Shown: positions 31,101-58,707 of the stretch, in pieces
Layout of the letters: each line of letters starts with the position of its first letter
Numbering within the stretch: the stretch's first letter is position 1
Source of the DNA: a virus
IMG/VR virus record: IMGVR_UViG_3300020577_003088
Span: 2,842-66,841 of that record
Direction: 5' to 3' (one strand)
Length of the DNA: 64,000 nt
Translations under genes and position numbers: made by a program
The notes under the pieces: generated by a model
Seen by the model: the letters and a program-made list of their open reading frames with translations, nothing else
The model's database searches: none
Told to the model about the DNA's origin: nothing

Positions 31101-34100
31101 GCAAGTCCACCTTCTCGAAGTCCATCGCGGCGACCCGTCAGGCGGCGCTCGTCGATAGCGATGTCATTCTGGAGCAAATCCCCGAATACGAGAACGGCTA
31201 TAACTCCAGCGCCGTGCGTCGCGAAGCGTCGTTCCTGCGCGATGTCGCTCTGGCGGAAATGATCGCCAGCGGCCAGAACCTTGTGATCGAGCGGATCGGC
31301 GACACTGACGAGCAGGCGCTTGGCCATATCCAAGAGCTTCGCGCGGCGGGCTACCAGATCGAAGTCGTGCATGTGGCTATCGGTCAAGACGAAGCCGTGC
31401 GTCGCGGCGCGCTCCGCTTCGTCGAGACAGGCCGCTATGTGTTGCCGCGCGTCTATGACAAGGCGGGCGACAATACGGGCAAGGTTTTCTCCCGCACCAT
31501 TGAAAACATTCCTCTCGATGGGTATATAGAGATCAATGCCGAAACTCCCCGGAACCAAGCGCAAGTCATCCGGTCGCAAGGAAGCCAAGACCTCCTTGCC
31601 GGATTGGCACCCCGACTGGCGTCCCCCGCCGGAAGCCCTGGCGCGCGCACGCGCGGTCGTGGACCGGCAGCGCCAGACGAACTCTTCCAGTCCGCCGACG
31701 ACGGCCTCCGTCCCGCAGGCGCCCTCTTCCGACAAATCGTGGGAGGAGATAATCGCGGAGGAACTGCGGAGTCAGGAAGCGCTCGACAGCCAGCGCCCAA
31801 ACTAGAGCCGATCTCCCGCCCGCCGACGCAGGCGGACGGCACGGTCGTTCTGACACACTACAGCGTCCGGCCCGATCTGACCCAGACTGACCCGGCCTAT
31901 CATGGCGCCGGTTTGTCCCGTCGTAGCGCCGACAATCAGCGGGGCGCTATCCCGCGCACTTATTTCGGCATCGGCGTCGGCATGCCCGGCGGCTATGTGA
32001 AAGAGTATGGTCTCGGCGAGCACGTCTACCAGACACAAGTGCCGCTCTCGCGTCTCTATGATGCGAAGGCCGATCCTGACGGCATCGTTCGCGCCGTGAA
32101 TGAAGAGTTTGCCGGTCAGCCTGGCCCTGTCCGCTTCACCGAATGGGAGAAGCGGATCAAGGCGGCAGGCTATATGGGCTATTGGGTCAACATGCAGGCG
32201 ATCCAGCCGTCGATGGGGATTGTCGCGGCGGTGTTCCGGGCGATCCCCGTGGCGCGGATCGGAGACGTGCAGGAGCTTTATCAGTCGAGTTCGCTGCCGC
32301 TCATGAGCGACGAGCAGCGTAAGCAGCTTGAGGCCGAAGGCTTCGATACCAGCCGTATCTTTTGGCGCGTTAGCAACGTCAGCGACGGACCGATTCGAGT
32401 AAGCACGCGCGGATTGATGGGAAATGGCGTCTATGTTTGGACGAAACGAACTGCCGTCAATAAAATTAAGAACAATACACGACTAAACGCCGTCGTTGTT
32501 CGTGGCGAACTGCCTATCATCGCAACGCAGCAAGAAGCCAAGCAAGCAATCGCCAATGGCGCGGCAGGCTATATTCTCGACGACACCTACAAAATGCCAA
32601 TGGCGGTGATTGTTGATCCTGAAAACATCCGTGTTGTGGCGAGTGTGGGGAGCGATGGGGTAGATGAACTCTATCAAGATCAGCGTCGCCCCTCTCTTGA
32701 GGAGTTCCGTGACGCGCTGATCGCCGATCTGCGCAACGAGCGCGCTGTCTATTCCTCTGACGACGATGCGGCGATTGAGGAACAAGAGCGGCTGCAAGCA
32801 CTTCGCCGCTGGTTTGAGGCGCGCGGCGTCAACCTCCAAGCCGACAAAGACGATCTGCGCCGTCAGATCGAGGCGGTTGTCCAGCGTGAGAAGAATAACC
32901 CGCTGGCGACGCCGCCGGACATCGCCGCGCAATGGTTCGGCTTCGAGGATGGCGAGGCGCTGCTGAAGGCGGTGAGCGGCCTGCCCTCTCGTGAGCGCGC
33001 CATTGAAGAGCGCATGACGGCGATGGTCGAGGCCGAGATCGGCGATCCGTTCTCGGATGGACGCATCGTCGAAGAGGCGCGTCTCGCCGCTCACCTTGAA
33101 GTGCAAGCGCGCCGCCTTGAGATCGAACTTGCCGCCCTGCAACAGGCGACGGGCGGTCGCGCCAAGCCGGTGGCGCAAGCGGCGAAAGCCTTCGCCGAAC
33201 GCCAGATCGGCATGATGACCGTCAAGCAGGTGCGGGGCTATGATGCTTTCCTCGCCGCCGAGCGACGCTCTGCGAAGGCCGCGCAAGAGCGGTTCCGTGC
33301 GGGCGATCTCGACGGCGCCGCGCTGATGAAGCAGCGCCAGCTTGTGAACTTCCATATGTACCGCCTCGCCCGTCAGGCGGCGGAGGAAATGGATCGCACG
33401 CAGGACTACTTCAAGAAGTTCGACCGTCCGACCATCCGCGCCAAGATCGCGACGCCGCATCTGGATCAGATCGACCAGGCGCTCGAAAGCATCGACATCC
33501 GCAAATCGCCGCCGTTCTCGGAGCGCCGCCGTCAAGGCTTCCTTGCATGGGTGCAGTCCATGAAGGATGCAGGCCGCGAGCATGAGATCGACGTTGATCC
33601 GCAATTTATGGAGCAAATCTCGCGCCGTCCGTTCAACACGTTGACCCTGTTGGAAGCGCGCGGTCTGCGGGACGCGATCAAGAACTTCGAGCACATCGGC
33701 AAACGCTTCAACGAAGTCATGGTGGCGCGACGCAAGCGCGAATACAACGAGCTTGTTCGTGAGCTTGTCACGGCCATCGACAAGAACGATCCGATCATCA
33801 AGGATCAGATCAAGGGCGAGAGCGAGAGCTTCTTCGAGAAGATGAACGATCTGCGCCTGAAGGCGCACGCCGAGCATACGAAGATGGAGTTTCTGTTCCG
33901 GCTGCTCGACGGCCTCAAGGATAATGGCATTGTCTGGCGCACGCTCTTCTTCCCCCTCGCGCGGGCGGAAGATGAAGAGCAAGTCATGCGCAATGCGTCG
34001 GCGGAGCGCATCGGCGCTATCTTCGGCGTCTATACCAACAGCGAGCGCGCCGCGATGTTCGGCAAGCGGGTGCTGGTGAACGAAGTCGCCACACGCATGA

Positions 34101-35866
34101 CAAAGGCCGAAATGCTGGCCGTGGCGCTGAATTGGGGCAACGAAGGCAATCGTCTGGCGCTACTGGAGGGCCATGGCTGGAACCCCTCGCAAGTCGAAGC
34201 GGTGCTCTCGCGTCTCGACAAGCGCGATTGGGATACGGTGCAAGCGATCTGGGACTGGATCGGCGAATACAAGCCCGCGTCATTCGCGTTGCAAGAGCGA
34301 CTGACGGGCGTCCGCCCCGCCGAGGTCGAACCCCTCCCCGTCTCGACGAAGTTCGGCGTCTATCGCGGCGGCTACTATCCGCTGCGCTATGATCCGCGCC
34401 GCAGCGAGAAGACCTTCAAGCGCGAAGAGAAGGTGAAGACGCTGGAGGAGTTCGGCTCCAACTGGATCAAGCCGCAGACCAAGAAGGGCCACTTGATCGA
34501 GCGCACGAAATCTGGCGGCCAGCGCGTGCGTCTCGATATGGGGGTGCTCACCGAGCATGTCGAGAATGTCATTCACGACATCACGCACCGGGAAGCGATC
34601 ATCACGACGCTGCGTCTTATCGAAGACCCGCGCTTGGCGGAAGCGATCAAGGGCGTGGTCGGCGTGCAAATGTATCGCGTGATCCGTCCGTGGCTCTCGC
34701 ACATCGCCGCCGATCAGCGCCAACCCGCTGGCGCCATCGAGCGTATCTTCTTGCGCGCACGCATGGGCGCCCAGGTCGTCAATATGGGCTGGAAGATCAC
34801 GACCGCGATTGTGCAGCCGCTCGGCCTACTGAACTCGGTGCCGCGTGTCGGCGCCGCCGAGATCGCAACCGAGGCGACCAAGTTCCTTGGCAATCCCTTC
34901 GCCATGAAAAACGCCATCGACTTCATCTTCGCCCGCTCGACGATGATGAAGAACCGGATGGATACGTTTGACCGCGATGTGCGTGAAGCGCTCGCGCGGC
35001 TTCGTGGTCGCGCCGAAGGCGATGTGGTCCCGGTCGGCATTCGTCAGTCGATGTTCTGGCTGACCGGCGTTCTCGACATGAGCGTTGCAGCGCCGACATG
35101 GCTGGCGGCCTACAAGAAGGCGATGAAGGGCAAGGTCGACAACATCAAGGCCGACGACGAGCAGGCCGCTATCGCCCACGCGGACAGCATTGTGCGGATG
35201 ACGCAAGGCGCGGGCGGTGTGAAAGACCTCGCCGAGATCACGGGCCGCTCATCGCAACTGATGAAGCTGTTCACGATGTTCTATTCCTACATGAGCAACC
35301 TCTACAATCAGCTTTATGTGGAGCAGGCGCCGGGCGTGCGGGGCAAGCAGATCAGCAAGGCGGCCTTTATCGGCAACCTCTTCTTCCTGTGGCTGGCGCC
35401 CGCCTATGTCGCCATGTTGCTGCAAGGCCGTGGCGACAAGGACGACGACGAGACGGTGGAGGAAATGCTCTGGCGTCAGGGTAAGGAGGTCGGCGCATAC
35501 CCGCTCCAGACCATCGTCGGCGTGCGTGATGTCGTGGCGGCGACCTCCAGCGGCTATGGCTACGAAATCAGCCCGGTCACGGATGTCGGCGTGACGACGG
35601 TCGGCGCGCTCTCCAAGGCGGGAGAAGCGGCCTTTGAGGGCGTGACCGGCGAAGATGGCGGCGTGGATGAGCATGAGCTTCGCGCGCTGATGAAGGATAC
35701 GACCATGGCGACCAGCTATTGGCTGGGCGCTCCTGGCCGTCAGTTGTGGACAAGCGGCTCTTATACGTCGGACGTTCTCACAGGCCGCGAGGAGACCCCA
35801 TGGGAAGACCCGGAGGCTTTCTGGAATGAGGGCCTGTTGAGGGACGCCAACGACCCGACCCGGTAA
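19187..35866 (+). CDS. Giant (5,559 aa) multidomain virion ejection / polyvalent effector protein in the gp16 slot
   Basis: Single uninterrupted 16,680-nt ORF. Motifs seen: GNAT (RGGGVGTQLYRDVIDALL), HESGH and HETLH (HExxH), P-loop GIPGAGKST with a zeta-toxin-like downstream region, sigma-r4/LuxR-like HTHs, and a C-terminal hydrophobic segment AAFIGNLFFLWLAPAYVAMLL. Confidence 0.8.
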   Translation: MTPQEEEELRRSIEASQKRPGLSALEQRAFGEQRAPEEVAQDHEIASQVGVPAPAVPSQRETYQRLARTLDASRRTRETPRLQAWLAEGDNYALAQNDLDLLGRIETYAQSMRDAFDPKSGLSAGERVSRVLFPVNRQTTVPEDVQRGIDQTISSYRAGEAQMRIARRLEDELTGLNDRGEMSVDVGLYRTMQERDRLRREGLQGDAGEVVETIPNFLGVFPAMAQGVINTETDLFKDYERQFREEYAKDPAGTVVGAAATAPLQMLIGVGGIPAGFIEGKNRYTYRLEAGSAYETMVGMKTVDGQPIRPEIAARAARDYGMIAAGIENMDFVLIGSLVKHTLESAGLKLSSPMAKRMVMAMALRRYGVEVLKQGASEGVEEGSQALAEILMRERAKADDGRRFEALDLGQAAAEIGQSVKIGAIFGGAVGGVASIPSLALDLDAVAATERNQEAFRQFVERAQSAQLARLSPEAMESALNAVTANTPIEDVSINVDAFTEYFQSKGLDPMRAAAELGVTPEQYDAAYKAHGELRFKTGTVQQRMIPTPHYAALADHIRVGDSLTPAEMKMQTAIFQNTLETALKKTASTAETIEAARKVGDIMREKFARAAEEGGPRPEYADRVASLWQALFQTLATHIQQSPELSARLGTNAEEIFSKFGFDVRGVGRANDPVDFRTVRGDTTENPFRWNDEAPQPREDAYDDLGDGLVEQPNYLDRARQAMDEMGDAAEPTPGREVLEGIPDDRLIEPLALAMAAKLRGEFDAQLVMDEILGQAEDMLYVEQAAEERASEIIDEDEMADDAEASLADDEELRAEVMDRLENLPPDVPFNAIPDGVIVGVAFPKGEALLTLRKPTEDGEIATSWGQTLYYTAGEHVILGEAEGDPRPVRRDIFEATYEQAEDGRWRKRHDVPVGFWTAEEDGVINAIEGPEPYKAGDVILIGVLGEMWPTKAASFEANNTIVVEEDYEDRASEVFHAITTSGKVSSAPRRVYDTETIGRVNPEHTIIIQSPRHSDLMKMTRFTRQVWGESAPGIVRFMEDDEGNLYASPAAGMLHDRMVDVLKQHGVNVSYNSVHGFIIRSGDTLYWANVEYGPMKGTLLEDRVEVEFAKRNKLSELFQSPADASAATKEADVPMATARALRYMALAQGGANNAAVYRQMAAEFNMTIGSVKATLSTLRGRIRKAEEDGTLDDLGQELSMSAEDMKRFAAPQQRGRSPEGEARRLKAVRARVERRRASGSPSGYALRKNIEISTRDTREIVLRFTDYSAQGMSRAEAFAQLELDGGWAEGVANKVVSQQRSALQKRIDREGLEAVAASLTLTPDILDAYMERRTAGAKRNEEEGRIIELSMQGVKPAVIAERLRQPVESVRNTVSLIRRVQKLKMMGRSIEEIVALTKLSRGRVEEYYAIPYIGLGSRSRFGWGDTVAEQRQTGENIRARLYELFDADPLALMKEHQARLRAEGFPPVDLGTLRRYVRNRYLGGDNGNGRFPGGAGTDASGASGSGAVGGPGAVGGASPAAEAPVPGQVASRTDPAEDIAVAGGFRRRGLGALQLDPASPWRTPVAQGDALADNSATLPLSEEERAARHSLFASILADTSLETQTDARAYTPGQAFAHPVKGWVQVPAGRTVPAETRRYSLAVPLRAHRSWDVAFSSEATYLEVEIIGKMAVIHGAATHPALRGGGVGTQLYRDVIDALLAEGKQVFSDQSVSDDAMRVYERLRQDGYSVKRVGNGALSKLTVIRGYSPQNTTQDGASIYEVAGKRDADEVFQTNSLRTANAKVAEDLIAQGVLLTDFKTPELDDQFRYRRAASLRDAPVAVYTLPSTRQTAKMEVTVTEAPASISAANRGYQGLATINMEYAGSTESGRRGHAKGSAADALRVFSLLYSIFMYDMRERNARGYVFTGATPELSRFYAYTMSKIDFPGYTLYYAPQADTFFFMRNGEALPDAYAGVKPLRPDALGEVYQDIFYSALERALEALKVKEATAAEWRKLIVSPAEVKRSVQRGPDNKPMMDAEGKPVMTERVIPESVRLPGVKRDEIDWTGLLDLLDFMSESPQMAPVKLSKDQLVDFVRQRGVNVEVHGEDETTGDAVDFDTWRDENEDAIYEREREIIDQQFDEDYSAPDLEVVQGSSDVRDVRDSIAYYQRQIESTEYTIRNMLAGRGMWDREDIERLRAKIAGYKEDIIREQRRLGEAPATDPYSLDMFTGAWVISLITSAGREQPVATYWDEDVARRALAAYQSNTAYSDIGTTFSLTREFLTQEVEPEFSEEEINSYYVIDHDADDDVVGGPYSSEDEAERDMEDYLRSHREKAYDNFVDGDMIWALEQAEQDLWDDYLHGNGNHRVAYSEWTTKGGKDYQAVRLSLPPRNRVTATPEVEHVPNHAIGSQYVLVDAITGQRAKSVSSNLYFATREEAEAAAEKGDAWFQLDEYGFRDNHFPENNILGWIRTKTYTDADGRKVLFIEEVQPQWQQKGLDRGFQKRVNQRVWRKIVQETKDAHDRYDALVAAADERLASWSADTGVPIDDNLRRMRSDEWVIAYRDDTANYIRAIARDSEVLKDVDLADEIAARIAAAKIQEETRLDATRYRVTQKVGDYVVVRGDYRTMDMANDEKGYLDRQGYEVSITEINSGIQVEVYPPTGVDLGAALDAADADVQRAQQAMEDARSPAGAVADMPFKQTPAAAGLFMKWAIRYAVENDFDAVAWTTGAQQAKRYNQLVDHIDELRWQPDPNDPEAGRLAAIQRGNIRRWITVGKGLPGAAHASATSDGTLDELVGKELADRLRAAPTKDEEFYGVDGYQSVSGVNLEFGGEGMKGFYDKILVNITNDLIKKSGQRVKSLGLGIEKSGAFSGIRPARTMWEVVAPDGVVTYRSIERDTAQWNADQSNAENGNDYGAAYTVREAHDDMDAGEAQPSFDINDELRSIAMGGFPYLQADGSTKMGSTVFDRWGSSNSGELRAAVIRLFEAQNLSTLLHESGHVFLEIFQTIANDKDVPPELRAMWASTMAWMGKEPGEALTREDHELWARTFEAYLKEGKAPSLALRDVFRIFQSWLLNVYRQVKGMLVGRDGRVYGDVKLSPEITEVFDRLLASEEELAVARDFMEADRPFFQTREESGMSEAAWADYVKSIDDARIETETALRVKAMDKYTRKERREWRVMRESFRATATRDVDTDMARRAYEWLADGTWRPLPPEKDEDGNDIPPDPAYDKPADLPDMRLDTKEVATVYGDEALANLPRALKPATEEDVDALLADAQAVKRSGKVRKALRLSAWVRKRGGVKDVGGDIAAAIGGAKTRPGVINNATGKDLDDLAVAAWEDGFFGPKPGKASADPDETGGSTPGELFQMAGPKSKLVDKKVLKHAKRMHRKKKANSEIWAETAAMNQPWYRNENGEWVTEFEDGAIRVVVDGSGKLEEYIDYESATSHYPQLKRYGVKVQTPKKIKDRALGRFIPFLKKIEVNAPKPIRESTVAHETLHAIDDIEGRKYGLGMRYGLRPGERRAFNVEFRRRWTMAQRIAMPPWVTEEDAVNWALGGRTDDKQAVAAVEEKYKGLPLPREEVKPPQRRAEPYQPRREEELPKIFNEDHEEETRLSVPGRVFLSRAEIANARKKDDTLPVVTDETEIDFDKKLSEQNPVVADKLRKLLKEHNAFGIYNKRGRSIYIRGEQRRYVGGYTPPYEPKLVSHNSSERSRQAIALEGAIMRAVQNWEDDAYDIGYRVAYAKAEGLTKEAFAEQEIEEITSRAWGHEELEDGTSVSLMPEENKESIRKIVDLAWDRVSIDHETAYGSSVFDSLANELGTLGAIQALADEGIVAGRFRSQGTDVGQSVVVFGQEFTGHDAARTRWGWFMSLAGAEDGATVSGGAARFGTDEEIASLVDLVMAGASAKQVFDHPVYQRIVAHDEAAVSTLPADFTEEQLAARVYVEGRNAAQVIDTAKRAFEQAAGGMTAYDRKATLVFGIPGAGKSTFSKSIAATRQAALVDSDVILEQIPEYENGYNSSAVRREASFLRDVALAEMIASGQNLVIERIGDTDEQALGHIQELRAAGYQIEVVHVAIGQDEAVRRGALRFVETGRYVLPRVYDKAGDNTGKVFSRTIENIPLDGYIEINAETPRNQAQVIRSQGSQDLLAGLAPRLASPAGSPGARTRGRGPAAPDELFQSADDGLRPAGALFRQIVGGDNRGGTAESGSARQPAPKLEPISRPPTQADGTVVLTHYSVRPDLTQTDPAYHGAGLSRRSADNQRGAIPRTYFGIGVGMPGGYVKEYGLGEHVYQTQVPLSRLYDAKADPDGIVRAVNEEFAGQPGPVRFTEWEKRIKAAGYMGYWVNMQAIQPSMGIVAAVFRAIPVARIGDVQELYQSSSLPLMSDEQRKQLEAEGFDTSRIFWRVSNVSDGPIRVSTRGLMGNGVYVWTKRTAVNKIKNNTRLNAVVVRGELPIIATQQEAKQAIANGAAGYILDDTYKMPMAVIVDPENIRVVASVGSDGVDELYQDQRRPSLEEFRDALIADLRNERAVYSSDDDAAIEEQERLQALRRWFEARGVNLQADKDDLRRQIEAVVQREKNNPLATPPDIAAQWFGFEDGEALLKAVSGLPSRERAIEERMTAMVEAEIGDPFSDGRIVEEARLAAHLEVQARRLEIELAALQQATGGRAKPVAQAAKAFAERQIGMMTVKQVRGYDAFLAAERRSAKAAQERFRAGDLDGAALMKQRQLVNFHMYRLARQAAEEMDRTQDYFKKFDRPTIRAKIATPHLDQIDQALESIDIRKSPPFSERRRQGFLAWVQSMKDAGREHEIDVDPQFMEQISRRPFNTLTLLEARGLRDAIKNFEHIGKRFNEVMVARRKREYNELVRELVTAIDKNDPIIKDQIKGESESFFEKMNDLRLKAHAEHTKMEFLFRLLDGLKDNGIVWRTLFFPLARAEDEEQVMRNASAERIGAIFGVYTNSERAAMFGKRVLVNEVATRMTKAEMLAVALNWGNEGNRLALLEGHGWNPSQVEAVLSRLDKRDWDTVQAIWDWIGEYKPASFALQERLTGVRPAEVEPLPVSTKFGVYRGGYYPLRYDPRRSEKTFKREEKVKTLEEFGSNWIKPQTKKGHLIERTKSGGQRVRLDMGVLTEHVENVIHDITHREAIITTLRLIEDPRLAEAIKGVVGVQMYRVIRPWLSHIAADQRQPAGAIERIFLRARMGAQVVNMGWKITTAIVQPLGLLNSVPRVGAAEIATEATKFLGNPFAMKNAIDFIFARSTMMKNRMDTFDRDVREALARLRGRAEGDVVPVGIRQSMFWLTGVLDMSVAAPTWLAAYKKAMKGKVDNIKADDEQAAIAHADSIVRMTQGAGGVKDLAEITGRSSQLMKLFTMFYSYMSNLYNQLYVEQAPGVRGKQISKAAFIGNLFFLWLAPAYVAMLLQGRGDKDDDETVEEMLWRQGKEVGAYPLQTIVGVRDVVAATSSGYGYEISPVTDVGVTTVGALSKAGEAAFEGVTGEDGGVDEHELRALMKDTTMATSYWLGAPGRQLWTSGSYTSDVLTGREETPWEDPEAFWNEGLLRDANDPTR

Positions 35867-47497: not shown

Positions 47498-47938
47498 TCA
47501 TGGCGGTGAGTTCCCCGCCATGATGTCGTTGACCTCTTTCGTCAGATCGTCCTTGTTGATGCTCGGCAGTATGCGGGTCAGGATCACCTGTTCCGCTCGC
47601 TGGTAGAACTGGTCGAAGGCTGCTTGATCCATCTTGGCGAAGGCGATGGAGCCAGGAACGATCATGGTCCGTCCATCCGGCAGCTTCACCGTCTCGCCAA
47701 GGCCGCACGCACACTTCATCGCCGCCGCGAACGTCTCCATGGTGGGGTAGAGGTCTTGATGCGGGAAGACCGCGTTGAGCAGGGCGAAGTATTTCCGATG
47801 GTGGTTGATGTTGCGAGGCTGCGAGATCACCGCCTTCACAACCACGCCATGCGGGATCGTGGCGAGGGCTTCCTCGCTCTCGCGATCTGCGGCGCGCAGC
47901 GCGCCAAGATGGCGCTTGAGGAAGACGGTCGTCGCCAT
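47498..47938 (-). CDS. NinB/Orf-like recombination mediator (putative)
   Basis: 146 aa. RNINHHRKYFALLNAV resembles the lambda NinB RSLDQNRKLWACLGDV segment. Adjacent to recT. Confidence 0.4.
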   Translation of the reverse strand: MATTVFLKRHLGALRAADRESEEALATIPHGVVVKAVISQPRNINHHRKYFALLNAVFPHQDLYPTMETFAAAMKCACGLGETVKLPDGRTMIVPGSIAFAKMDQAAFDQFYQRAEQVILTRILPSINKDDLTKEVNDIMAGNSPP

Positions 47939-48879
47939 CAGGCCGGGTTCGCCTCCAGCAGCGTGGCCATGCGCAATTCGATCTTGGCCTTGAGTGCGAG
48001 CGCGTCGGATTTGCTCTCGGCCCAGAATTGTTGCAGCGCCGCCGCGTTCGTGCGCGTGAAGAAATCGAGTTCGTCGGGCGTGCCCAGCTTTGCAATGTGA
48101 TCCATGACGCGATCCGCGAACCGCCCCCACGGCACCAGTTCGTTCGGCTCGCCGACATTCCACGACACCAGCGCGCCAGGCCCGCCGACACGCGCGGATC
48201 GCTCTTCGGCGCGGTACTTCTCCACAACCTCGAAGGCGCCGTCGATGACAATGGCGCGATCCATTTCCTCTTCGCCATACAGCCCCGAGAAGTGCGCGGG
48301 CCAGCCGCGCCGCAGCGCTTGCGCCTCGGCGCACTTGGCGATCATCACCCGCGCCATGCGCTGCCAGTTCGGCGCCAATTTCTTCTTGCCGGTGGGCCGT
48401 CGTCTGCCGGTCTCGTCTTCGGCCCACACGTCTTCGATGGCGCAATACTCATCCCAATAGGCTTCACCCGCCACGGGAAACCATGTTCCAGACACCGCAT
48501 CCCGCCGCCACACGATGACCTCCGCGCGAACAATGCCAAGCGGGTTTGTCACGGGGTCTTTCAGGGCCTCGTCATATTCGATCTTCGGAGAGGTCTCGGA
48601 AGGGCGATAGTCGCCCATGCGATCCGCAATCGCCCGCAGTCCATCTATCGTGTAGATGATGGACATTTTCCGCTTGGTGTTGTCGTTCTTGTTGAAGACG
48701 ACGGCGGTGATCTGGCGGCGGATCGGGTCAAGCCCGGCGCTCAACGCCGCCGCCATGAACAGATCGAACTCTTCGCCGTTCGTGTCCTTGGCCACCGTCC
48801 GCTTGATGAGATCAAGCTGGTTGGCGGTGAAGGAGACGGGCGGACGGGGCGGCGCGGGCGGGAGCGTTACTTCAGACAT
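47938..48879 (-). CDS. recT: RecT-family single-strand annealing recombinase
   Basis: TANQLDLIKRTVAKDTNGEEFDLFMAAALSAGLDPIRRQITAVVF is the canonical RecT/Bet N-terminal signature. 313 aa. Confidence 0.75.
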   Translation of the reverse strand: MSEVTLPPAPPRPPVSFTANQLDLIKRTVAKDTNGEEFDLFMAAALSAGLDPIRRQITAVVFNKNDNTKRKMSIIYTIDGLRAIADRMGDYRPSETSPKIEYDEALKDPVTNPLGIVRAEVIVWRRDAVSGTWFPVAGEAYWDEYCAIEDVWAEDETGRRRPTGKKKLAPNWQRMARVMIAKCAEAQALRRGWPAHFSGLYGEEEMDRAIVIDGAFEVVEKYRAEERSARVGGPGALVSWNVGEPNELVPWGRFADRVMDHIAKLGTPDELDFFTRTNAAALQQFWAESKSDALALKAKIELRMATLLEANPA

Positions 48880-49403
48880 CAGCGTCTCCGAATGGTCAGC
48901 GTCTCGCCGCCATTGTCGAGCATGGCGCCTTCGATCTCGACACGCTCTTCCGGCGGCTTCCGTTCTTCCGCCAGCAGGGCGTCTTTCAACGCCTTCTTGT
49001 CAAGAACAGGATCGGGCTGTTTCCAGAAACGGGCGGGGATCGCCGCCTCGTTCGTCGTCTGGAGTTGTCGCGCCTTCTTGCCGAGCGAGATCGTCGCAGA
49101 AGGGCGCTCGATCTTCGTCGTCTCCAGCAACCGCAGCGCTTGTCCGATCACCGTGCGACGGGTTTCCTGCCGCTTCTGGACGCGCGCCTGGCGCGCTTCC
49201 AGCGTGTCGATCATGTGTTGGAGGCCGGTGATGAGGCCAGCGTCTTCAAGATCGCCCGCCAGCAAACCATCCACCATGTCCATGATCCCGGTCTCGCCCT
49301 CGGCCATGTCGAGAAGGAGGTCTCCATCCTCGCCATGGCCGAGATCGGCCAGTGTCTTCTTCAAGGCGGCGACCGCCTCAAACTCACGGGCCAGCGTGGA
49401 CAT
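48879..49403 (-). CDS. Gp157-like protein (putative)
   Basis: ~170-aa helical protein directly upstream of recT, the usual context of the siphovirus Gp157 family. Internal ATG (MSTLAREF...) taken as the start. Confidence 0.35.
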   Translation of the reverse strand: MSTLAREFEAVAALKKTLADLGHGEDGDLLLDMAEGETGIMDMVDGLLAGDLEDAGLITGLQHMIDTLEARQARVQKRQETRRTVIGQALRLLETTKIERPSATISLGKKARQLQTTNEAAIPARFWKQPDPVLDKKALKDALLAEERKPPEERVEIEGAMLDNGGETLTIRRR

Positions 49404-49996
49404 CAGGCGCGACCCGACGACGGCGTTTCGGACAGCTTGCGGAGCAGTTCCACAACTTGCTCCCCGGCCTTCGCCTCCTTCACGTCGTCCTTGGTCTTGG
49501 ACGCGATGGCTTCCTCGGCGACATATGCCTTCATGCGCCGCGAGTCCGCCAGAAACTCGACCAATGGCGCCGAGAAGATCGGGCGGCCCGTACGCTCGCT
49601 GAATTGCGCCGCCGCCGCCCGCGAACCGCTGGTCGAAGTCCACCCGACAACGCAGTCGATCATGTCGCAGGCGTGCGTGTTGGTCACGTCTTCAAGCGAC
49701 AGGGGCGCCAGAGCGGGCGTCACATAGCGGCGGAAGACCATCACGCCGCCGGGCGGCCAGCGCCCAAGCCAGAGCGACGGCTTCGGCATGACCAGATCGC
49801 CAGGCTCGAAAGTTTCCTTGGCGTCGAGCGCTGCGCATCCTTCACGCAGGAGCGCGATGGCCTCATCCGCCGTCGTGTTGTCTTCAGCCGGATCGGGGAG
49901 GCCGTCTGTCGGATCGCCGCCAGTCATCGCCGCGAGCGCTTTCTTCAGCGGCTCCGGCATATCGTCGTCGCCGCCGAACACTACATTGATGCCCAT
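49403..49996 (-). CDS. Hypothetical protein (197 aa)
   Basis: ORF in the leftward early operon. No motif recognised. Confidence 0.45.
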   Translation of the reverse strand: MGINVVFGGDDDMPEPLKKALAAMTGGDPTDGLPDPAEDNTTADEAIALLREGCAALDAKETFEPGDLVMPKPSLWLGRWPPGGVMVFRRYVTPALAPLSLEDVTNTHACDMIDCVVGWTSTSGSRAAAAQFSERTGRPIFSAPLVEFLADSRRMKAYVAEEAIASKTKDDVKEAKAGEQVVELLRKLSETPSSGRA

Positions 49997-50326: not shown

Positions 50327-50670
50327 CAGCCGCGTCCCCCGGATTTGCGTTCTATCTCGTCTTCTTCAACGGCGGCGGCGTAGGCTTCCGCGTAAACCTT
50401 GGACGCATTCAGAAACTCTTCCGCCGCCTGAAGGGCGCCGACCAGCGCGCGTCCTTTGGCGATCAGCTTTGGCGTCAGCTTGGCGTCGGCCACGGCGCTC
50501 GGCGCATTGAGCGCGTCATTGTAGCATTTCGCCATGAGCGCGTAGGTGTCCGGCTTTCCGACTTCGAGGAGCGCCATCGCCGCATTTATCATCGCCTTGT
50601 CGCACTCACGAGAAACGAGAGTCACGGCCAGTTTGCCGATGACCTCGCGAAATGGCTTCATCCCTGACAT
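50326..50670 (-). CDS. First gene of the leftward early operon (helical, 114 aa)
   Basis: Start taken at MSGMKPF. Divergent from the Cro-like gene at 50782. Confidence 0.45.
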   Translation of the reverse strand: MSGMKPFREVIGKLAVTLVSRECDKAMINAAMALLEVGKPDTYALMAKCYNDALNAPSAVADAKLTPKLIAKGRALVGALQAAEEFLNASKVYAEAYAAAVEEDEIERKSGGRG

Positions 50671-50719
50671 CGCGTCGCTCCGAGTTCCACATCGCCAAGA
50701 TGGGCGTTTGCGCATCGAC

Positions 50720-50772
50720 CGTCAAGGCTCGCCTGACGCGCGATTGCTCATTTTCTCGACAATCGGTAGAGT
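50720..50772 (+). promoter_or_regulatory. Switch region: palindrome CGTCA-N9-TGACG plus promoter TTGCTC-N17-TAGAGT for the Cro-like gene
   Basis: Palindrome at 50720-50738. The -35/-10 pair (50744-50772) ends 9 nt before ATG 50782, implying a near-leaderless mRNA. Confidence 0.35.
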
Positions 50773-50781
50773 GATTCGCGC

Positions 50782-50997
50782 ATGACAGCCGCGACGAAAG
50801 ACCTGACGCCGAGAGACGCCATCCGCCGCTTACAGCGGATCGACGTGACGGCGAAGGAGTGGTGCGAGCGCGCCGAGGTCAGCGTCTCCACATGGCAGCG
50901 CTGGCAACGCGGGGCGCATGAACCGCGAGCCTCGACGCGGCGTGTCCTGGCGATGGCGCTGTGCGCCATGGAAAGGGAAAGGGGCAGGGATGATTGA
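50782..50997 (+). CDS. Cro/XRE-family HTH regulator
   Basis: 71 aa. HTH AKEWCERAEVSVSTWQRWQRG. First gene of the rightward unit, divergent from the leftward operon. Confidence 0.55.
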   Translation: MTAATKDLTPRDAIRRLQRIDVTAKEWCERAEVSVSTWQRWQRGAHEPRASTRRVLAMALCAMERERGRDD

Positions 50998-51169
50998 GGG
51001 ATGGCTCACTGACATAGAGGCGTGGATGGAGGGCGGCGGGGTGGCGATCCTCGCGTTCGGGGGGTGGCTGCTGATGATCGCGATGATGGTCGCGCGCCTC
51101 CTTTACCAGACGTTCGTTCACCCGCTCGACCCGCCGGAGGATCACTATGGCCGCCGTCGCGACTGGTAA
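50990..51169 (+). CDS. Small membrane protein (59 aa)
   Basis: ATGA overlap with the cro-like gene. TM segment VAILAFGGWLLMIAMMVARLL. Confidence 0.35.
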   Translation: MIEGWLTDIEAWMEGGGVAILAFGGWLLMIAMMVARLLYQTFVHPLDPPEDHYGRRRDW

Positions 51170-51398
51170 GCGGCTCACCCTGTCGGGGTGGGAGCGGTGC
51201 TGTCTGATCGGCGTCTACTTCAACGACAAGGCCAGCAGCCGTGAGACCTTGATCGCGGAGGCCGCGCTCCGACGTAAGGGGCTGCTCACGCCAGAGCGGG
51301 CGCTGACGCCGCGTGGCAAGCAGATCGCCGAGAAACTGATCGACAAGATGGATAGGAGGCTTTTTCAGCCGTGGAATGGGTCGGGCACTACATCCTGA
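51147..51398 (+). CDS. Hypothetical protein (83 aa)
   Basis: ORF in the rightward unit. Confidence 0.4.
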   Translation: MAAVATGKRLTLSGWERCCLIGVYFNDKASSRETLIAEAALRRKGLLTPERALTPRGKQIAEKLIDKMDRRLFQPWNGSGTTS

Positions 51399-51724
51399 AG
51401 GGGCGTGAGCCCGTGGCCGTGTCCCTAGAAGAGTGGATGCGGTGGTGGCCCGACGCCGACCGCGTGGTGGCGCGAACTCGACTGGCGAGCGGCGTGACTG
51501 TTTCGACGGTGTTTCTCGCCCTTGACCCTAACTTCCATGGCGATGGACCGCCCCTCTTGTTTGAGACGATGGTCTTCGATGCGCCTAGCGATCCCTCGCG
51601 CCCGTTCGGCGAAGATAGGCTCTGCCGTCGCTATCCGACATGGGCGGACGCCGAGATCGGCCATATGGAAGTGTGTGAAATGCTGGAGCCTGACTTTCTA
51701 TTCACAGGCCGCGCACAACATTGA
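51371..51724 (+). CDS. Hypothetical protein
   Basis: ORF. The start is uncertain (GTG at 51371 or ATG at 51440). Confidence 0.35.
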   Translation: MEWVGHYILKGREPVAVSLEEWMRWWPDADRVVARTRLASGVTVSTVFLALDPNFHGDGPPLLFETMVFDAPSDPSRPFGEDRLCRRYPTWADAEIGHMEVCEMLEPDFLFTGRAQH

Positions 51725-52044
51725 GGGCGCCGCCGCCGCCTTTCATTTGACGCGAATCGAGAAGCCGGAAAACTGAAGCGGCCCCGGAGAAGGAACCTCC
51801 GAGGCCGCTTCCGCGACGAGCGGGGACGCATCAAATCGCAACGCCAGTCTGGTGAGGAGCCCGGCGTGAACCAAGTATATAGGGCGCTTCGCCCTTCCGA
51901 TACAAGTCCTTGTGTGCGCCGCCGCGCCGCACCGCCCGCAGCCCGCCGGGAACCCGGCGCCGCCGGGATCGCCGCCTATTCTGCCGTGATGTTCTCGGCG
52001 TCAGCGGCATCGCTTTACATAATAAACATTACGCGAGTCGACGC

Positions 52045-53433
52045 ATGCTGACGCCGCCGCACGACCTCGCCGCCGAGCAAGCCGTGCTCGGCGCCCTGCT
52101 CTTCGACAACCAGTTGCTCGACGCCATGCCGTTGCTCGTCGGCGACTGCTTCTATGAGCCGGTTCACCAACGCATCTTCAGCGCGACGGTGCGTCTCATT
52201 CGCGCCGGTCGCATTGCGGACGCCGTGACATTGCGGGCGATGGCGGCGCGAGATGGCGCGCTCGAAGAGATCGGCGGCGCGCAATATCTGTTGAGGCTGC
52301 TCGAAGGCGCGGCGCGCTTGCGCACGCAAGCCATCGACTATGCACACTTGTTGATCGACTTGCGCGCGCGCCGCGAGATCGCCGTCGCTCTCAATGAAGC
52401 GGTTGGCATGCTCTCGCAAACGTCCGCGATTTCGGCGAGCGATCTATTGTCTGGGCTCGAAGCGAGCCTGCGCAAGATCGCGGTGAGCGGCGAGTCGAGC
52501 GGCGTGACGCTCGAAGAGGCGGCGCAAAACCTCATCGCCAACATGAGCGATCCGGCGCGACGCGGCATGCGAACCAGCTTCGACGTGCTCAATCGTCGCC
52601 TTGGCGGCTTCTTCCCTGGCGAACTGATCCTGATTGCCGGACGCCCGTCCATGGGGAAGACGGCCCTCGCCACAAACATCGCCCGCAACCTCGCCGCTGA
52701 AGGCAAGCGCGGTCACTTCGCCAGTTACGAAATGAGCGCCGAGAGCATCGCCGCACGGTCGCTCTCGGCGGCGTCATTCGCCGATGAACAAAGGCGTTTC
52801 GACTATGCCTCGCTCCGGCGCTCCTTCGAGGGTCCGAGCGTTGACGTGTCCATGCTGCGGGCGATGGCGCGCGATCTGCCCACGTCCCTTCTCATCGACT
52901 CCACGGCGGCGCAGACGGTGGCGCAACTCGACGCCTCGATCCGCAACACGCGTCGCCGCCTCGGCGGCATCGACTATGTGGTGGTGGACTATCTGCAACT
53001 CATGCGTTCGCCTGTGCGCGGCGGACGTGTCGAACAGATGACCGAAGTCAGCCAGGGCCTCAAGGCGCTCGGCATGACCTACAATGTGCCGGTCTTCGCG
53101 TTGTCGCAATTATCACGGTCGAACGAGTCGCGTGAGGACAAACGCCCCCAACTCCACGACCTCCGCGAGAGCGGATCGCTGGAACAGGACGCCGACGTGG
53201 TGCTCGGCGTTTATCGCGAGGCGTACTATCTGAAGCGCGCCCAGCCCATGCGCGCCAACTTCAAGAGCGAGTCAGAGTTCAATCTCGCCGACATCGAATG
53301 GAGCGACAAGCTGCGCGCCGTCGAGCGGATTCTTGAAGTCTCGACCCTCAAGCAACGCAACGGCGACGTGGGCACGGATACACTCGACTTTTGGGCGAAA
53401 TACGATGTCGCCGCTGACGCGGTGCGGAGGTAG
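52045..53433 (+). CDS. dnaB: Replicative DNA helicase, DnaB family
   Basis: N-terminus PHDLAAEQAVLGALLFDNQ...HQRIF...IGGAQYLLRL is the DnaB N-terminal signature. Walker A GRPSMGKTALA. Internal ATG of the track ORF taken as the start. Confidence 0.8.
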   Translation: MLTPPHDLAAEQAVLGALLFDNQLLDAMPLLVGDCFYEPVHQRIFSATVRLIRAGRIADAVTLRAMAARDGALEEIGGAQYLLRLLEGAARLRTQAIDYAHLLIDLRARREIAVALNEAVGMLSQTSAISASDLLSGLEASLRKIAVSGESSGVTLEEAAQNLIANMSDPARRGMRTSFDVLNRRLGGFFPGELILIAGRPSMGKTALATNIARNLAAEGKRGHFASYEMSAESIAARSLSAASFADEQRRFDYASLRRSFEGPSVDVSMLRAMARDLPTSLLIDSTAAQTVAQLDASIRNTRRRLGGIDYVVVDYLQLMRSPVRGGRVEQMTEVSQGLKALGMTYNVPVFALSQLSRSNESREDKRPQLHDLRESGSLEQDADVVLGVYREAYYLKRAQPMRANFKSESEFNLADIEWSDKLRAVERILEVSTLKQRNGDVGTDTLDFWAKYDVAADAVRR

Positions 53434-53435
53434 CA

Positions 53436-54425
53436 ATGGACGGCGCACGGTACTCGATCTTTGCGGCGCGCGCGGTCTTCGACGCACGGCTCACGAATAC
53501 CGCCAAGATCGTGCTCGCCGCCCTTGGCACCTACACGGACAAAGAAGGCTGGTGCCATCCGAGCCAGGCCACGCTCGCCGCGCGTCTGGGCATTGGGCGC
53601 CCTGCTGTCTCGGCCTCGATCAATATGCTGGTGGACTGCGGCTACGTCATGGTTCGCGCGCGCACGGCGTCAGGGCGCGGCAAGATCGGCAATGAGTACC
53701 GGGTCGTTACCGACCTCCCGAACGCCAGCGAACGTCCAATGTCGTCCTCGGACGACAACGGCAAAACACCCGATGTCGCTCCAGAAAGACAACGGAAGGG
53801 CCGCAAGGGAAATAGGGCCGTCGCCAAGCCGATGTCGTCCCAGAACGACAATGGGCCGATGTCGTCCCAGAACGACATGCCGATGTCGTCCCAGAACGAC
53901 ATCGTATATACGGATGAACGACCCCAGACTCTTGGGGGAAAGCCGAAGGGCGATTTGTTCGGGGAGCCCGCCCCTTCACCGGCCCCTCGCAAGCCGCGAG
54001 CGCCAGCATACCCGGAAGACTTCGAGGCGTTCTGGCGCACCTGGCCGAAGAACCGACGCGAGCGATCCGACAAGCGCACGGCGATGCGGCGATGGGCGGA
54101 CGCACGCATGCGCTGGGATGCGAGCCTGCTGATGCGCGCCGCCGAGAACTACCTCTCGAAGCCGGACACGCGGAAGGAGGACTGGCGCTACTGCTGCCTT
54201 GCCGAAGTGTTCCTCAACGGCAAGCTGGAGGCGGCGGTCGAGGCTGTCGAAGATCAGGCGCCGGAGCGCGAAGAGCCCGACGACGGCAATGGCCGCTACC
54301 GGGCGGCGTGCATGCTGCGGCTGAAGCATGGGCGTTGGCTCGCGAGCGGGCCGCAGGCAGATGAAATCCCGCATGTCGTGCAGCGGGAGTATCCTCAACT
54401 CTTCTCGCAAGGAGGTCTGCAATGA
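53436..54425 (+). CDS. Replication initiator-like protein (N-terminal wHTH) containing iterons
   Basis: wHTH LTNTAKIVLAALGTYTDKEGWCHPSQATLAARLGIGRPAVSASINMLVDCGYV is typical of phage replication-initiation proteins. Central PMSSQND repeats encode the DNA iterons. Confidence 0.55.
   Translation: MDGARYSIFAARAVFDARLTNTAKIVLAALGTYTDKEGWCHPSQATLAARLGIGRPAVSASINMLVDCGYVMVRARTASGRGKIGNEYRVVTDLPNASERPMSSSDDNGKTPDVAPERQRKGRKGNRAVAKPMSSQNDNGPMSSQNDMPMSSQNDIVYTDERPQTLGGKPKGDLFGEPAPSPAPRKPRAPAYPEDFEAFWRTWPKNRRERSDKRTAMRRWADARMRWDASLLMRAAENYLSKPDTRKEDWRYCCLAEVFLNGKLEAAVEAVEDQAPEREEPDDGNGRYRAACMLRLKHGRWLASGPQADEIPHVVQREYPQLFSQGGLQ
53736..53915 (+). repeat. Iteron array: 3 perfect and 2 degenerate copies of ccgATGTCGTcccagaACGACAt, plus AT-rich GTATATAC
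   Basis: Perfect copies at 53829-53850, 53856-53877 and 53880-53901. Degenerate copies near 53736 and 53769. Each unit is itself an inverted repeat (ATGTCGT / ACGACAT). The palindrome GTATATAC follows. Confidence 0.55.
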
Positions 54426-54616
54426 GCTACGCCGCGCGCAACACCGCGAAGGTATCCCCGAAGCACCGCGAGATTGATCCTGACGACGCGCGCTTCTGGC
54501 GTGAGCAGAGCGAACGCGAACCGCTGGACGAACGCATCGAATTGCTGAAAGAGGAATGCGGCAATGGCGCGCTCGCGTTCGCGCTGCGGGCCGCACTGGA
54601 GAAGCACGCGGGATGA
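54422..54616 (+). CDS. Hypothetical protein (64 aa)
   Basis: ATGA-coupled ORF. Confidence 0.4.
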   Translation: MSYAARNTAKVSPKHREIDPDDARFWREQSEREPLDERIELLKEECGNGALAFALRAALEKHAG

Positions 54617-54798
54617 TCTGCGACGACGCGCTCAATGACCCGGAGCGCCGCATGGCGACGGCCTATTGCGGTCAGTGTCGGGTTTTCTTTTACGTCGAAT
54701 GCCCGGTATGCGCGCATCACGCCGCAGGGCCGCCGCCGAAGATGGACGAGCGCGCCGATGATCTTCCGTTGCTGAACTGGATCAACCAAAACCCATGA
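54613..54798 (+). CDS. Cys-rich zinc-ribbon-like small protein (61 aa)
   Basis: Internal ATG overlapping the previous stop. CGQC ... CPVC motifs. Confidence 0.35.
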   Translation: MICDDALNDPERRMATAYCGQCRVFFYVECPVCAHHAAGPPPKMDERADDLPLLNWINQNP

Positions 54799-54998
54799 CG
54801 ACCGCCCCTTCCCGACGCTCGATTTTCAAGGGCCTCATGGCCGCGCCTGTTGCGGCGGCTGTGGGCTCTGATGTCGCCGCCCAGCCATGGGCTTACGGGA
54901 TTGATCCGTATTATGGATCGCCATTATGGATCGCCGCTGCCGATGGCGCCGAACGTGGCGGGAGAGGCCATGAGCGCATGGCGCATGGACGCGGCTAG
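54795..54998 (+). CDS. Small ORF with twin-arginine-like N-terminus (weak)
   Basis: ATGA coupling with the previous gene. SRRSIFKGLMAAPVAAAVGS resembles a Tat signal, but the protein is only 67 aa. Confidence 0.25.
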   Translation: MTTAPSRRSIFKGLMAAPVAAAVGSDVAAQPWAYGIDPYYGSPLWIAAADGAERGGRGHERMAHGRG

Positions 54999-55233
54999 CG
55001 CCAACGCAGAGAAGATTGCAGAGCGTGTCGTGACTTCTGGCTACGCCGAAGTCATCGGCGAACGCGCCAAGCCTCCCGGCTCCACCGGCTCATGGGAGGC
55101 TGTATGGGATCGCATGGAGGTCGTGCAACCGTCTCTCGCGGCGAGGTGCCGTCGTCTCTCTCGATTGCGCTCTATGAGCCAGGCGGCGAAATGGGCGTAC
55201 GGTTCCCCGACAGCCACGCCGACATCGCCTTGA
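54970..55233 (+). CDS. Hypothetical protein (87 aa)
   Basis: ATG with GGGAGAGG RBS. This is the internal Met of the track ORF 54850-55233. Confidence 0.25.
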   Translation: MSAWRMDAASANAEKIAERVVTSGYAEVIGERAKPPGSTGSWEAVWDRMEVVQPSLAARCRRLSRLRSMSQAAKWAYGSPTATPTSP

Positions 55234-57222: not shown

Positions 57223-58665
57223 TTACGCCGCCTGCCTTTGACGGTCGGTGCGGTAGACGGCGCGTACGCGGCGGTCGCCGACGAGTTCAAGGATCGCGTC
57301 GCGGTGGTCGAGATCGCGGTTCTGATCTTCGACCGCCTTCAGCGCCCGCAGAATGTCGTCGCGTTGAAGGCCGCCCATGGTATTGGCCTTGAGATCGCGT
57401 TGCAGCGCAAACGAGGTCGCCTGCTGCACCACGCCCGCCACCAGCGCGCCATTGACCAAGTGACGCAGCGCAAGGGTTTCGTCGCCGTCTTCCGTCTCCA
57501 CGCGGTAGAGCGCGCGCTTGGCGTGGAAGAGTTCGACGGCGGAGAACGCCGCGACATCCTCGATGTCTTCCCCGTCCGCCAGCGGCACGCCACGAAGGTT
57601 CATGGCGAAGATCGAATGGCTGGACGTGAGGTCAGGCCGCTCAATCTTGATCTTGCGGTCGATCCGTCCGTCGCGCACGATGGCCGGGTCGAGCGTGTCG
57701 GGCCGGTTGGTGGCGAGGATCGTCAGCGCGCCGGTCTCTTCGAGGCCGTCCATTTCCGTCAGAAACGCCGGAACGATGGTGCGCTCCATGTCCGAGGAAA
57801 TCGACGATCCGCGACGGCCCAGCAACGAGTCGGCTTCGTCGATGAAGATGACCGCAGGCGCCCCCGTCTCTTTCTTGAAGCGTCGGGCGCGCGCAAAGAG
57901 ATCGCGGATCGACGCCTCCGCCACGCCGACGAAGCGGTCAAGGAGTTCCGGCCCCTTCACATAGAGGAAGCCATCGCTCGTCCCCTTGTCAGCGTGCAGG
58001 CTCGCCAACGCCGTCGCCGCCGCCTTGCCGAGCATGGTCTTGCCGCAGCCGGGAGGGCCATAGAGCAGGATGCCCTTGGCGGGCTTCTTGCCGTAGTGTG
58101 AGAAGATCGCCGGGTTCCGATGCGGCAGTTCGACGGCCTCGATCATCGCGGCCTTGGCGTCTTGCAGCCCGCCGATGTCGTTCCACGAGACATTGGTCTC
58201 TTCGCGCACGACGTAGGCTTGCTGCTGTTTGGGCAGCTTGCGGGCGGCAATGATGTTGCCTTCGACGATCACGCGGTCGCCCGCTTCCAGCTTGAGGCCG
58301 CCGGAGAAAATGACTACCGGAGCGCCATCGCTGCGGATTTCGACGAAGCGCTTGTCGATGACGCTGGAGATCGTCTGGATGGTCCCGCCGAGATCGAAGT
58401 CGATCAGATCGACGATCTGCATGTTGAGCACAAGCACCCGCGAGCCGATCTTCAGCTTGAGGCCGTTGGCAGGCTCGACCTGGGCCATGGCCCCGCCGAC
58501 GCAGACGATAGGCTTGGGTTTCAACTCGACGACGACGCCGAATGATTTCGGCGATTCAGACACGCGGTCGATGAAGTCTTGCTGTTGCGCGAGCGCTTCT
58601 TGCGCCTGCTCAAGCGCCGACTTGAGCGCTTCGACTTGCCGGAGGATTTCTGCGTCCTTGCCCAT
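57223..58665 (-). CDS. AAA+ ATPase of the classical (FtsH/proteasomal ARC/PAN) clade with N-terminal coiled coil and OB-like domains
   Basis: Walker A GILLYGPPGCGKT, Walker B VIFIDEADS, second region of homology ILATNRPDTLDPAIVRDGRIDRKIKIERPD. N-terminal coiled coil and two beta-rich segments give an ARC/Mpa/PAN-like architecture. Confidence 0.75.
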   Translation of the reverse strand: MGKDAEILRQVEALKSALEQAQEALAQQQDFIDRVSESPKSFGVVVELKPKPIVCVGGAMAQVEPANGLKLKIGSRVLVLNMQIVDLIDFDLGGTIQTISSVIDKRFVEIRSDGAPVVIFSGGLKLEAGDRVIVEGNIIAARKLPKQQQAYVVREETNVSWNDIGGLQDAKAAMIEAVELPHRNPAIFSHYGKKPAKGILLYGPPGCGKTMLGKAAATALASLHADKGTSDGFLYVKGPELLDRFVGVAEASIRDLFARARRFKKETGAPAVIFIDEADSLLGRRGSSISSDMERTIVPAFLTEMDGLEETGALTILATNRPDTLDPAIVRDGRIDRKIKIERPDLTSSHSIFAMNLRGVPLADGEDIEDVAAFSAVELFHAKRALYRVETEDGDETLALRHLVNGALVAGVVQQATSFALQRDLKANTMGGLQRDDILRALKAVEDQNRDLDHRDAILELVGDRRVRAVYRTDRQRQAA

Positions 58666-58707
58666 GGTGTGATCTTGTCCCTGCACACGGTCAATCCGCC
58701 GGGATCA

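Follow-up and report, generated by a model that had tools for sequence, protein, structure and literature searches.

The 64,000-nt stretch of phage DNA analysed here (positions 2,842 to 66,841 of IMG/VR record IMGVR_UViG_3300020577_003088; hereafter the window) contains an array of dyad-symmetric repeats (iterons) inside a gene for a replication initiator. We consider it highly probable that this array is the phage's origin of replication, placed in a lambda-like manner in the part of the initiator gene that encodes a linker between two domains. The region 53736-53926 would then constitute a testable origin of ~190 bp, with a cognate initiator/helicase pair, for uncultured alphaproteobacterial phages.

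Iteron array in the linker-coding part of the initiator gene

Sequence reading and a repeat finder identified five in-register copies of a 20-bp dyad at 53739-53902. Each unit consists of 7-nt arms, ATGTCGT and ACGACAT, around a 6-nt spacer (ATGTCGT-N6-ACGACAT), and the copies start at 53739, 53773, 53832, 53859, and 53883, with start-to-start spacings of 34, 59, 27, and 24 nt. Iterons 3 (53832..53851, ATGTCGTCCCAGAACGACAA), 4 (53859..53878, ATGTCGTCCCAGAACGACAT), and 5 (53883..53902, ATGTCGTCCCAGAACGACAT) are perfect across the 19-nt pattern and identical across ccgATGTCGTCCCAGAACGACA, and iterons 1 (53739..53758, ATGTCGTCCTCGGACGACAA) and 2 (53773..53792, ATGTCGCTCCAGAAAGACAA) each carry three mismatches in that pattern. 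A preliminary description, made from the sequence alone, had reported such an origin-like array of dyad units inside the initiator gene, and its three perfect copies spaced by 27 and 24 bp and its two degenerate upstream copies were all recovered. The array is specific to this locus: a search of the 64-kb window for ATGTCGTCCCAGAACGACA with up to three mismatches returned the five iterons as its sole matches, against 0.01 matches expected by chance, and six matches were reached in 0 of 100 dinucleotide-preserving shuffles. The iteron arms are complementary at 5 to 7 of 8 positions. The half-site 8-mer CGATGTCG occurs 28 times in the window against 6.7 times expected, scattered across coding sequence; because this expectation comes from shuffles that are blind to codon bias, which probably accounts for the general excess, we do not take the excess as a signal.

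The gene that holds the array (53436..54425, + strand) encodes a 329-aa protein with an N-terminal winged helix-turn-helix (wHTH) domain, a disordered linker, and a helical C-terminal domain. The protein matches HTH_36 (PF13730; 6.8e-13, 48.6 bits against a cut-off of 25), a family detected in 22 of 22 relatives, as well as phrog_270, annotated as 'replication initiation protein' (7.6e-22), phrog_391, annotated as 'O-like' (2.3e-11), and several further 'O-like' PHROGs, in agreement with its initial designation as a wHTH initiator-like gene. In an AlphaFold2 model built with 51 homologues, aa 10-95 (53463..53720, + strand) form the DNA-binding domain, with a helix-turn-helix and a beta-hairpin wing and a predicted local distance difference test score (pLDDT) of 88-97. 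The model predicts that aa 100-185 (53733..53990, + strand) form a disordered linker without secondary structure (pLDDT 45-58), and that aa 190-275 (54003..54260, + strand) form the helical C-terminal domain (pLDDT 95-98), in which the family's most conserved residues sit. The predicted linker holds the whole proposed origin, since the iterons encode aa 102-156 and lie wholly within it, and it is poorly aligned among homologues apart from the repeat-encoded motifs.

DNA-level conservation and turnover of the repeats

Searches with the initiator returned 84 homologues, the best with 52% identity, besides one database sequence of 100% identity. DNA was compared for 17 homologous genes (30-52% identity), with the linkers laid out by codon. 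Absence of the repeats from relatives had been named in advance as the observation that would speak against an origin; repeats were found in 17 of the 17 genes, in copy numbers from 4 to 6. The identical protein, 329 aa with 100% amino-acid identity, is encoded on a 5120-bp contig from an independent run (L029, Logan SRR31616005). There, the iterons agree with those of the window in sequence and spacing, and the order of neighbouring genes is the same; the phage was thus present in more than one sample, without iteron variation.

The DNA motif is retained in all three reading frames. In a closer clade of 13 genes, 54 copies of ATGTC-N10-GACA(T) were counted. Of these, 39 are read in the frame that encodes PMS (frame 0), whereas 12 are displaced by one base (frame +1) and 3 by two (frame +2). 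Translation of the displaced copies yields unrelated peptides such as DVAPERQ, GADVQLAGQ, and RRRPTPT, and for the shifted copy of L003 a TAG codon would arise if the PMS frame were used. In the window, iteron 1 is read in frame 0 (peptide MSSSDDN) and iteron 2 in frame +1 (peptide DVAPERQ); a frame-shifted copy also occupies the iteron 2 position in L030 and L031. The earlier report of PMSSQND peptide repeats therefore needs amendment: four units do encode PMSSxxD, but copy 2 (53773) is out of frame with the others, so that the peptide repeat comprises four units and not five. The counterpart of iteron 4 is shifted 1 nt downstream in most relatives and is read out of frame. The last three copies are spaced by 28+23 nt in most relatives and by 27+24 nt in the window and L013, so that the middle copy alone moves, by one base, and the sum of 51 nt is constant. 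In L031, a different palindrome, ATGTTCACCTGGGTGAACAG (4446-4465), stands in the slot of the relatives' frame-shifted fourth iteron; the slot is kept and the sequence replaced.

Codon usage within the repeats follows the DNA motif. Aspartate is encoded by GAC in 38 of 38 PMSxxxD units, compared with 106 GAC and 84 GAT codons elsewhere in the same genes, and the codon after it starts with A in 37 of the 38, though it encodes N, M, or I. These counts were made on units defined by their peptide, as iterons defined by sequence would have made the test partly circular. The possibility that the peptide PMSSxxD[I/N/M]G itself is selected, its units serving as linear motifs for a binding partner (the helicase, for example) and the DNA repeat being the by-product, draws on the homologue alignment, in which PMSxxxD[I/N]G-like units recur in the linkers of most homologues, and on the fact that disordered linkers often carry short linear motifs. 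However, this explanation is largely refuted by the frame data, with 15 of the 54 copies keeping the DNA motif while encoding unrelated peptides in other frames. The invariable GAC, the constant A after it despite a varying residue, and the presence of other repeats and other peptides at the same place in distant relatives also stand against it, and we give it almost no credence.

The two arms of the dyad change together. The family consensus is a 26-bp dyad, CCG-ATGTC-[C/G]G-N6-C[G/C]-GACAT-CGG, and at its symmetric pair 6:15, 28 copies have C:G and 13 have G:C. Arm covariation would also be expected if the repeats acted as single-strand hairpins, either as a signal for DNA initiation or primosome assembly or as an mRNA structure that modulates translation or decay, and the + strand of 53730-53935 does fold better than shuffled sequences (-42.3 vs -29.3 kcal/mol, z = -4.2). 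Palindromic arrays, however, fold well by construction, and the ATGTC/GACAT cores are near invariant at 45-50% protein identity, which points to base-specific recognition rather than mere pairing. The array of L021 consists of direct, non-palindromic repeats at the same place, and an Rfam search of 52500-55000 at a permissive threshold gave a single chance-level match, to a miRNA model (E 0.47). A hairpin function therefore appears improbable.

In homologues at a greater distance (30-37% identity), the linker is occupied by repeats of unrelated sequence. These comprise four copies of GCCGGTGTTCG-N4-CGAACACCGG in L017, four direct copies of GTTACAACCGGCAAT in L021, GGCAA-N4-TTGCC units in L007, and GTGCTCA...TGAGCAC units in L008. 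Their final spacings are 28+23, 33+23, and 16+23 nt (60+25 in L008), compared with 27+24 in the window. Within the ATGTC clade itself, three half-site classes were distinguished. The start of the recognition helix varies with the repeat class (RPAVSAS in the window, RSTVxAA, RQTISxA, RARVSEA, and others elsewhere), and helix and repeat thus change in step as co-evolution of initiator and iteron predicts, in a correlation that is confounded by phylogeny.

Taken together, the spread over frames, the GAC usage, the arm covariation, and the unrelated repeats of distant relatives show that selection acts on the DNA and not on the peptide. The PMSSxxD peptide repeats are best explained as a by-product of DNA repeats in a tolerant disordered linker, and with a motif present in three frames of that linker they offer an unusually clean case of a conserved 'peptide repeat' that arises from DNA-level selection. 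Spacing that is kept while the repeat sequence is fully replaced also bears on how iteron-initiator complexes are built.

Downstream module, genomic setting, and proposed initiation

The last iteron is followed by a short AT-rich palindrome, GTATATAC (53904..53911), which is a candidate start of an unwinding element. TATATA occurs only three times in the window (31523, 51876, and 53905), the segment 53898-53917 is among the least stable 0.2-0.5% of 12- to 20-nt windows by nearest-neighbour stability, and a TATATA-like patch lies at the same place in most relatives. The AT-rich palindrome noted in the preliminary description thus exists where it was placed and recurs in relatives, but it spans only ~8-12 bp and is not the stability minimum of the window.

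A 10-mer, AACGACCCCA (53917..53926, + strand), lies 34 nt downstream of where the last iteron starts and has a single exact copy in the 64 kb. The usual order in relatives, counted from the last iteron, is iteron, cgGTATATA, 10-mer, and often a second 10-mer; the first lies at an offset of +31 to +38 and the second at 45-51 in 13 of 16 relatives, the second copy following the first by 13-14 nt, and L008 has three copies with a 12-nt period. Positions of these elements are 2107-2130 in L003, 1437-1460 in L013, 4503-4526 in L031, 4525-4547 in L030, 4501-4523 in L032, and 3429-3462 in L008. The general motif is AACGNNCCCA, with AACGACCCCA, AACGTTCCCA, and AACGAGCCCA as phage variants; most phages have identical copies, two showing a one-base difference, and copies from different phages differ. 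The copies of a doublet are read in different frames (TTP, ERPQ, KNDP), and all three frames are used across relatives.

As a lead only, drawn from sequence comparison, the 10-mer may be part of an unwinding or helicase-loading region. Its end, ACCCCA, matches the weak DnaA 'W-box' consensus TCCCCA of Caulobacter (PMC4285127) at 5 of 6 positions. A DnaA-box reading is likewise a lead and not a finding, and a phage-encoded partner fits better than host DnaA because the 10-mer varies between phages and agrees within them. It is possible, if rather doubtful, that a compact module of TATATA and one to three 10-mers with a 12- to 14-nt period, ~34 nt from the last iteron, replaces the long AT tract of lambda-type origins in this high-GC family. 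If that were true, the 10-mers would be a second class of recognition sites, for the C-terminal domain of the initiator, the phage DnaB, or weakly binding host DnaA, and would define the place of helicase loading.

The initiator gene directly follows a gene for a DnaB-type replicative helicase (52042..53433, + strand), which matches DnaB_C (2.4e-65) and the DnaB N-terminal domain (4.8e-21) in Pfam and phrog_19 (4.1e-89), and whose stop codon lies 2 nt ahead of the initiator start codon. The same arrangement, with dnaB directly upstream of the initiator, was found in L029 and L030-L033, the relatives whose gene tables were read. The preliminary description had likened this neighbourhood to lambda; an adjoining DnaB-like helicase is indeed present, but it lies upstream of the initiator, the reverse of the lambda O-P order. 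The 320-bp intergenic gap before dnaB contains TTTACATAATAAACATTACG (52013-52035), directly upstream of the dnaB start codon at 52042, and the TATATA at 51876-51881; these elements may mark a promoter of the replication genes or a further site prone to unwinding.

A lone half-site CGATGTCG (53403-53410) in the end of dnaB precedes the start codon of the initiator by 26 nt and could function in autoregulation. It has a place in an alternative explanation of the array as an operator or roadblock, by which the wHTH protein would bind its own gene and limit transcription of the 3' part and of downstream genes with no role at an origin. Dyad sites for a wHTH dimer resemble operators, and plasmid initiators commonly autoregulate through inverted repeats. 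On the other hand, a sigma-70 scan, which does not cover other promoter types, found no promoter-like site in 50500-55000, the sites lie 300 bp inside the open reading frame (ORF), and the family is annotated as replication initiators and is always coupled to dnaB. Regulation would leave this coupling and the downstream module unexplained; the conserved multi-copy geometry, the TATATA patch, and the downstream 10-mers are features of origins rather than operators, and autoregulation could in any case coexist with origin function. We regard a purely regulatory role as unlikely.

A PDB sequence search with the family profile returned only generic wHTH regulators and DnaD-N, and Foldseek aligned the domain, with weak E-values, to wHTH proteins that include the N-domains of staphylococcal plasmid RepA proteins and DnaD-N. 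The centromere-binding wHTH protein TubR is also among the weak Foldseek matches, and a ParB_N gene lies just downstream of the replication module in L031, both of which would suit another kind of wHTH-bound cis site, such as the partition centromere of a plasmid-prophage or a packaging (pac) site. Nevertheless, the similarity to TubR is that of a generic wHTH fold (E about 5e-2), the gene always adjoins dnaB, and the PHROG families that it matches are those of replication initiators. Its neighbours include neither a partition NTPase nor a terminase, and the structural genes are ~40 kb away, all of which makes such a site highly improbable.

For the array as a replication origin, we envisage that the 53436-54425 product would occupy the five iterons, each a dyad, as dimers of its wHTH domain. 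A higher-order complex would probably nucleate at the three closely spaced downstream copies and could strain and open the adjacent TATATA patch and AACGACCCCA element. The helical C-terminal domain, which had no match in a Pfam scan or in the PDB sequence search with the family profile, would act as a module that recruits the helicase or replisome and would bring in the phage's own DnaB, encoded directly upstream; host primase and polymerase would then take over. No DNA polymerase was found among the window ORFs scanned, the whole window not having been searched for one; this result agrees with initiation under phage control and subsequent replication by enzymes of the host.

Several observations weigh against an origin at this site. 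GC skew along the window has no inflection near 53.8 kb and thus gives no origin signal there. The AT-rich element is only ~8-12 bp long, whereas that of lambda has 40 bp with 80% AT. For 12-nt stretches, the stability minimum of the window lies elsewhere (52013-52035, just upstream of dnaB), and the window has one copy of the 10-mer versus a doublet in most relatives. The joint change of recognition helix and repeat class carries the phylogenetic confounding mentioned above. All relatives are metagenomic contigs, and DNA and protein searches of GenBank phages returned no close initiator relative in a cultured phage; the helicase alone matched weakly, to Caulobacter phage DMCA (72% over 12% of the query). 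A scan of one genome per species gave a single relative, an Alphaproteobacteria metagenome-assembled genome that matches the N-terminal half alone.

The halves of the initiator also part company elsewhere in the family. Many relatives match one half only, with 45-76% identity (P0045-P0069): L002, L010, and L019/L020 match the N-terminal half, and L009/L022 and L026 the C-terminal half. These partial matches suggest that the wHTH and C-terminal domains may be shuffled independently, with the linker and its putative origin as the junction. Independent shuffling of domains is known for lambdoid O genes.

The window is a phage genome, with genes for a T7-like portal, a major head protein, tail and tail-fibre proteins, and a RecT recombinase. 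The replication operon is flanked on the opposite strand by the RecT-family recombinase and a Gp157-like neighbour (47938-49643, - strand) and by an AAA+ ATPase (PF00004, 1.7e-33; 57223-58686, - strand). A single ORF of 5559 aa (19187-35866, + strand) lies between a lysis-like gene and the tail-fibre genes, and its first 2000 aa match phrog_9880 alone (unknown function, 7.8e-19). Relatives sharing this portal have genomes of ~40-45 kb, versus the contig of 66.8 kb here. In three relatives, a GcrA-like gene and DNA methyltransferase genes occur just downstream of the replication module (L031 6296-6796, L032 5151-5651, L033 6609-7106, and neighbours); together with the ParB_N gene of L031 they point to alphaproteobacterial hosts and to possible interference with the host cell cycle. 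Among the window ORFs scanned, none was a GcrA homologue.

Vectors for high-GC alphaproteobacteria could take their replicons from modules of this kind. Origins in metagenomic phage genomes could be annotated by a search for initiators in which a wHTH domain and a C-terminal domain are joined by a linker with frame-independent repeats.

Comparison with known systems

Origins within initiator genes are also found in the repABC plasmids of the same host class, the alphaproteobacteria. In these, the origin lies inside the repC coding sequence, where silent mutations demonstrated an essential AT-rich stretch, and repC lacks iterons, its longest repeats not exceeding 8 bp (PMC3155836). The present system shares with RepC/oriV the location, here proposed, of the origin in the initiator gene and differs in its domain layout and in its five iterons, compared with none in repC. 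Weak matches to the RepC N-terminal domain were obtained for 12 of 22 family members in a scan with a cut-off of E 1 (best 1.4e-3); the window protein itself gave no RP-C match in Pfam at E up to 1.

The RepA_N plasmids pSK41, pSK1, and pTZ2162 use a DnaD-N-like N-terminal wHTH that binds semi-palindromic iterons (PMC7145576), and the discussion section of PMC3155836 lists RepA_N plasmids among replicons with an iteron origin inside the rep gene. A variable C-terminal domain, host- or partner-specific in RepA_N plasmids, is a further likeness to the family described here. The structural resemblance (5kbj, 4pql, and 4pt7 are among the top Foldseek matches, all weak, with E about 1e-2 and TM 0.46 on the target) fits the generic wHTH/DnaD-N fold of the predicted domain. 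PF06970 gave no match in the window protein at E up to 1 and is not among the 25 most widely matched families listed for 22 members. The two systems also differ in their carriers, Firmicutes plasmids there and alphaproteobacterial phages here.

Phage P22 combines gene 18, an O analogue with an internal origin, with gene 12, a phage-encoded helicase of the DnaB family. The P22 order 18-12 is reversed here, with the helicase first and then the initiator, and host clade and GC content also differ.

The same layout was seen in lambda, which we analysed as a control in the same way as the window. In gene O, the Phage_rep_O domain (PF04492, aa 22-115) is followed at once by the four annotated iterons (aa 117-145), which are spaced by 20, 24, and 23 nt and read in frames 0, 2, 2, and 1; next comes a 40-nt stretch with 80% AT. 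As in the window, dyad repeats extend from the end of the N-terminal DNA-binding domain in mid-gene, are read in more than one frame, and precede an AT-rich element, one that is much weaker in the window. The initially proposed likeness to the lambda O gene and its ori is supported, with a wHTH initiator adjoining DnaB and repeats in the inter-domain linker in the same layout as in the control. The origin of lambdoid phages is located in the middle of O, with the iteron an imperfect 19-bp inverted repeat, and lambda has four iterons, compared with six and 13 extra residues in Shiga toxin (Stx) phages (PMC7466680). In phage P27, iterons have been recoded synonymously (PMC7466680). Copy number thus varies among relatives in both groups (4 and 6 in lambdoid and Stx phages, 4 to 6 here) and alters the length of the linker.

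The likeness does not extend to protein homology as far as detected: the lambda O family (PF04492) gave no match for the window protein at E up to 1, although lambda O itself matched at 5.7e-36, it is not among the 25 most widely matched Pfam families listed for 22 members, and hhalign of the family profile against O returned a probability of 0.7%. Iterons are 18-19 bp in lambda and 20-26 bp here, and the AT-rich element is 40 bp there and ~8-12 bp here, with the additional conserved 10-mer AACGACCCCA. A P-type loader encoded downstream hijacks host DnaB in lambda, whereas the present phage encodes its own DnaB upstream of the initiator. An origin inside the initiator gene is known from lambda, and what is new is its probable instance in an uncultured phage lineage of alphaproteobacteria.

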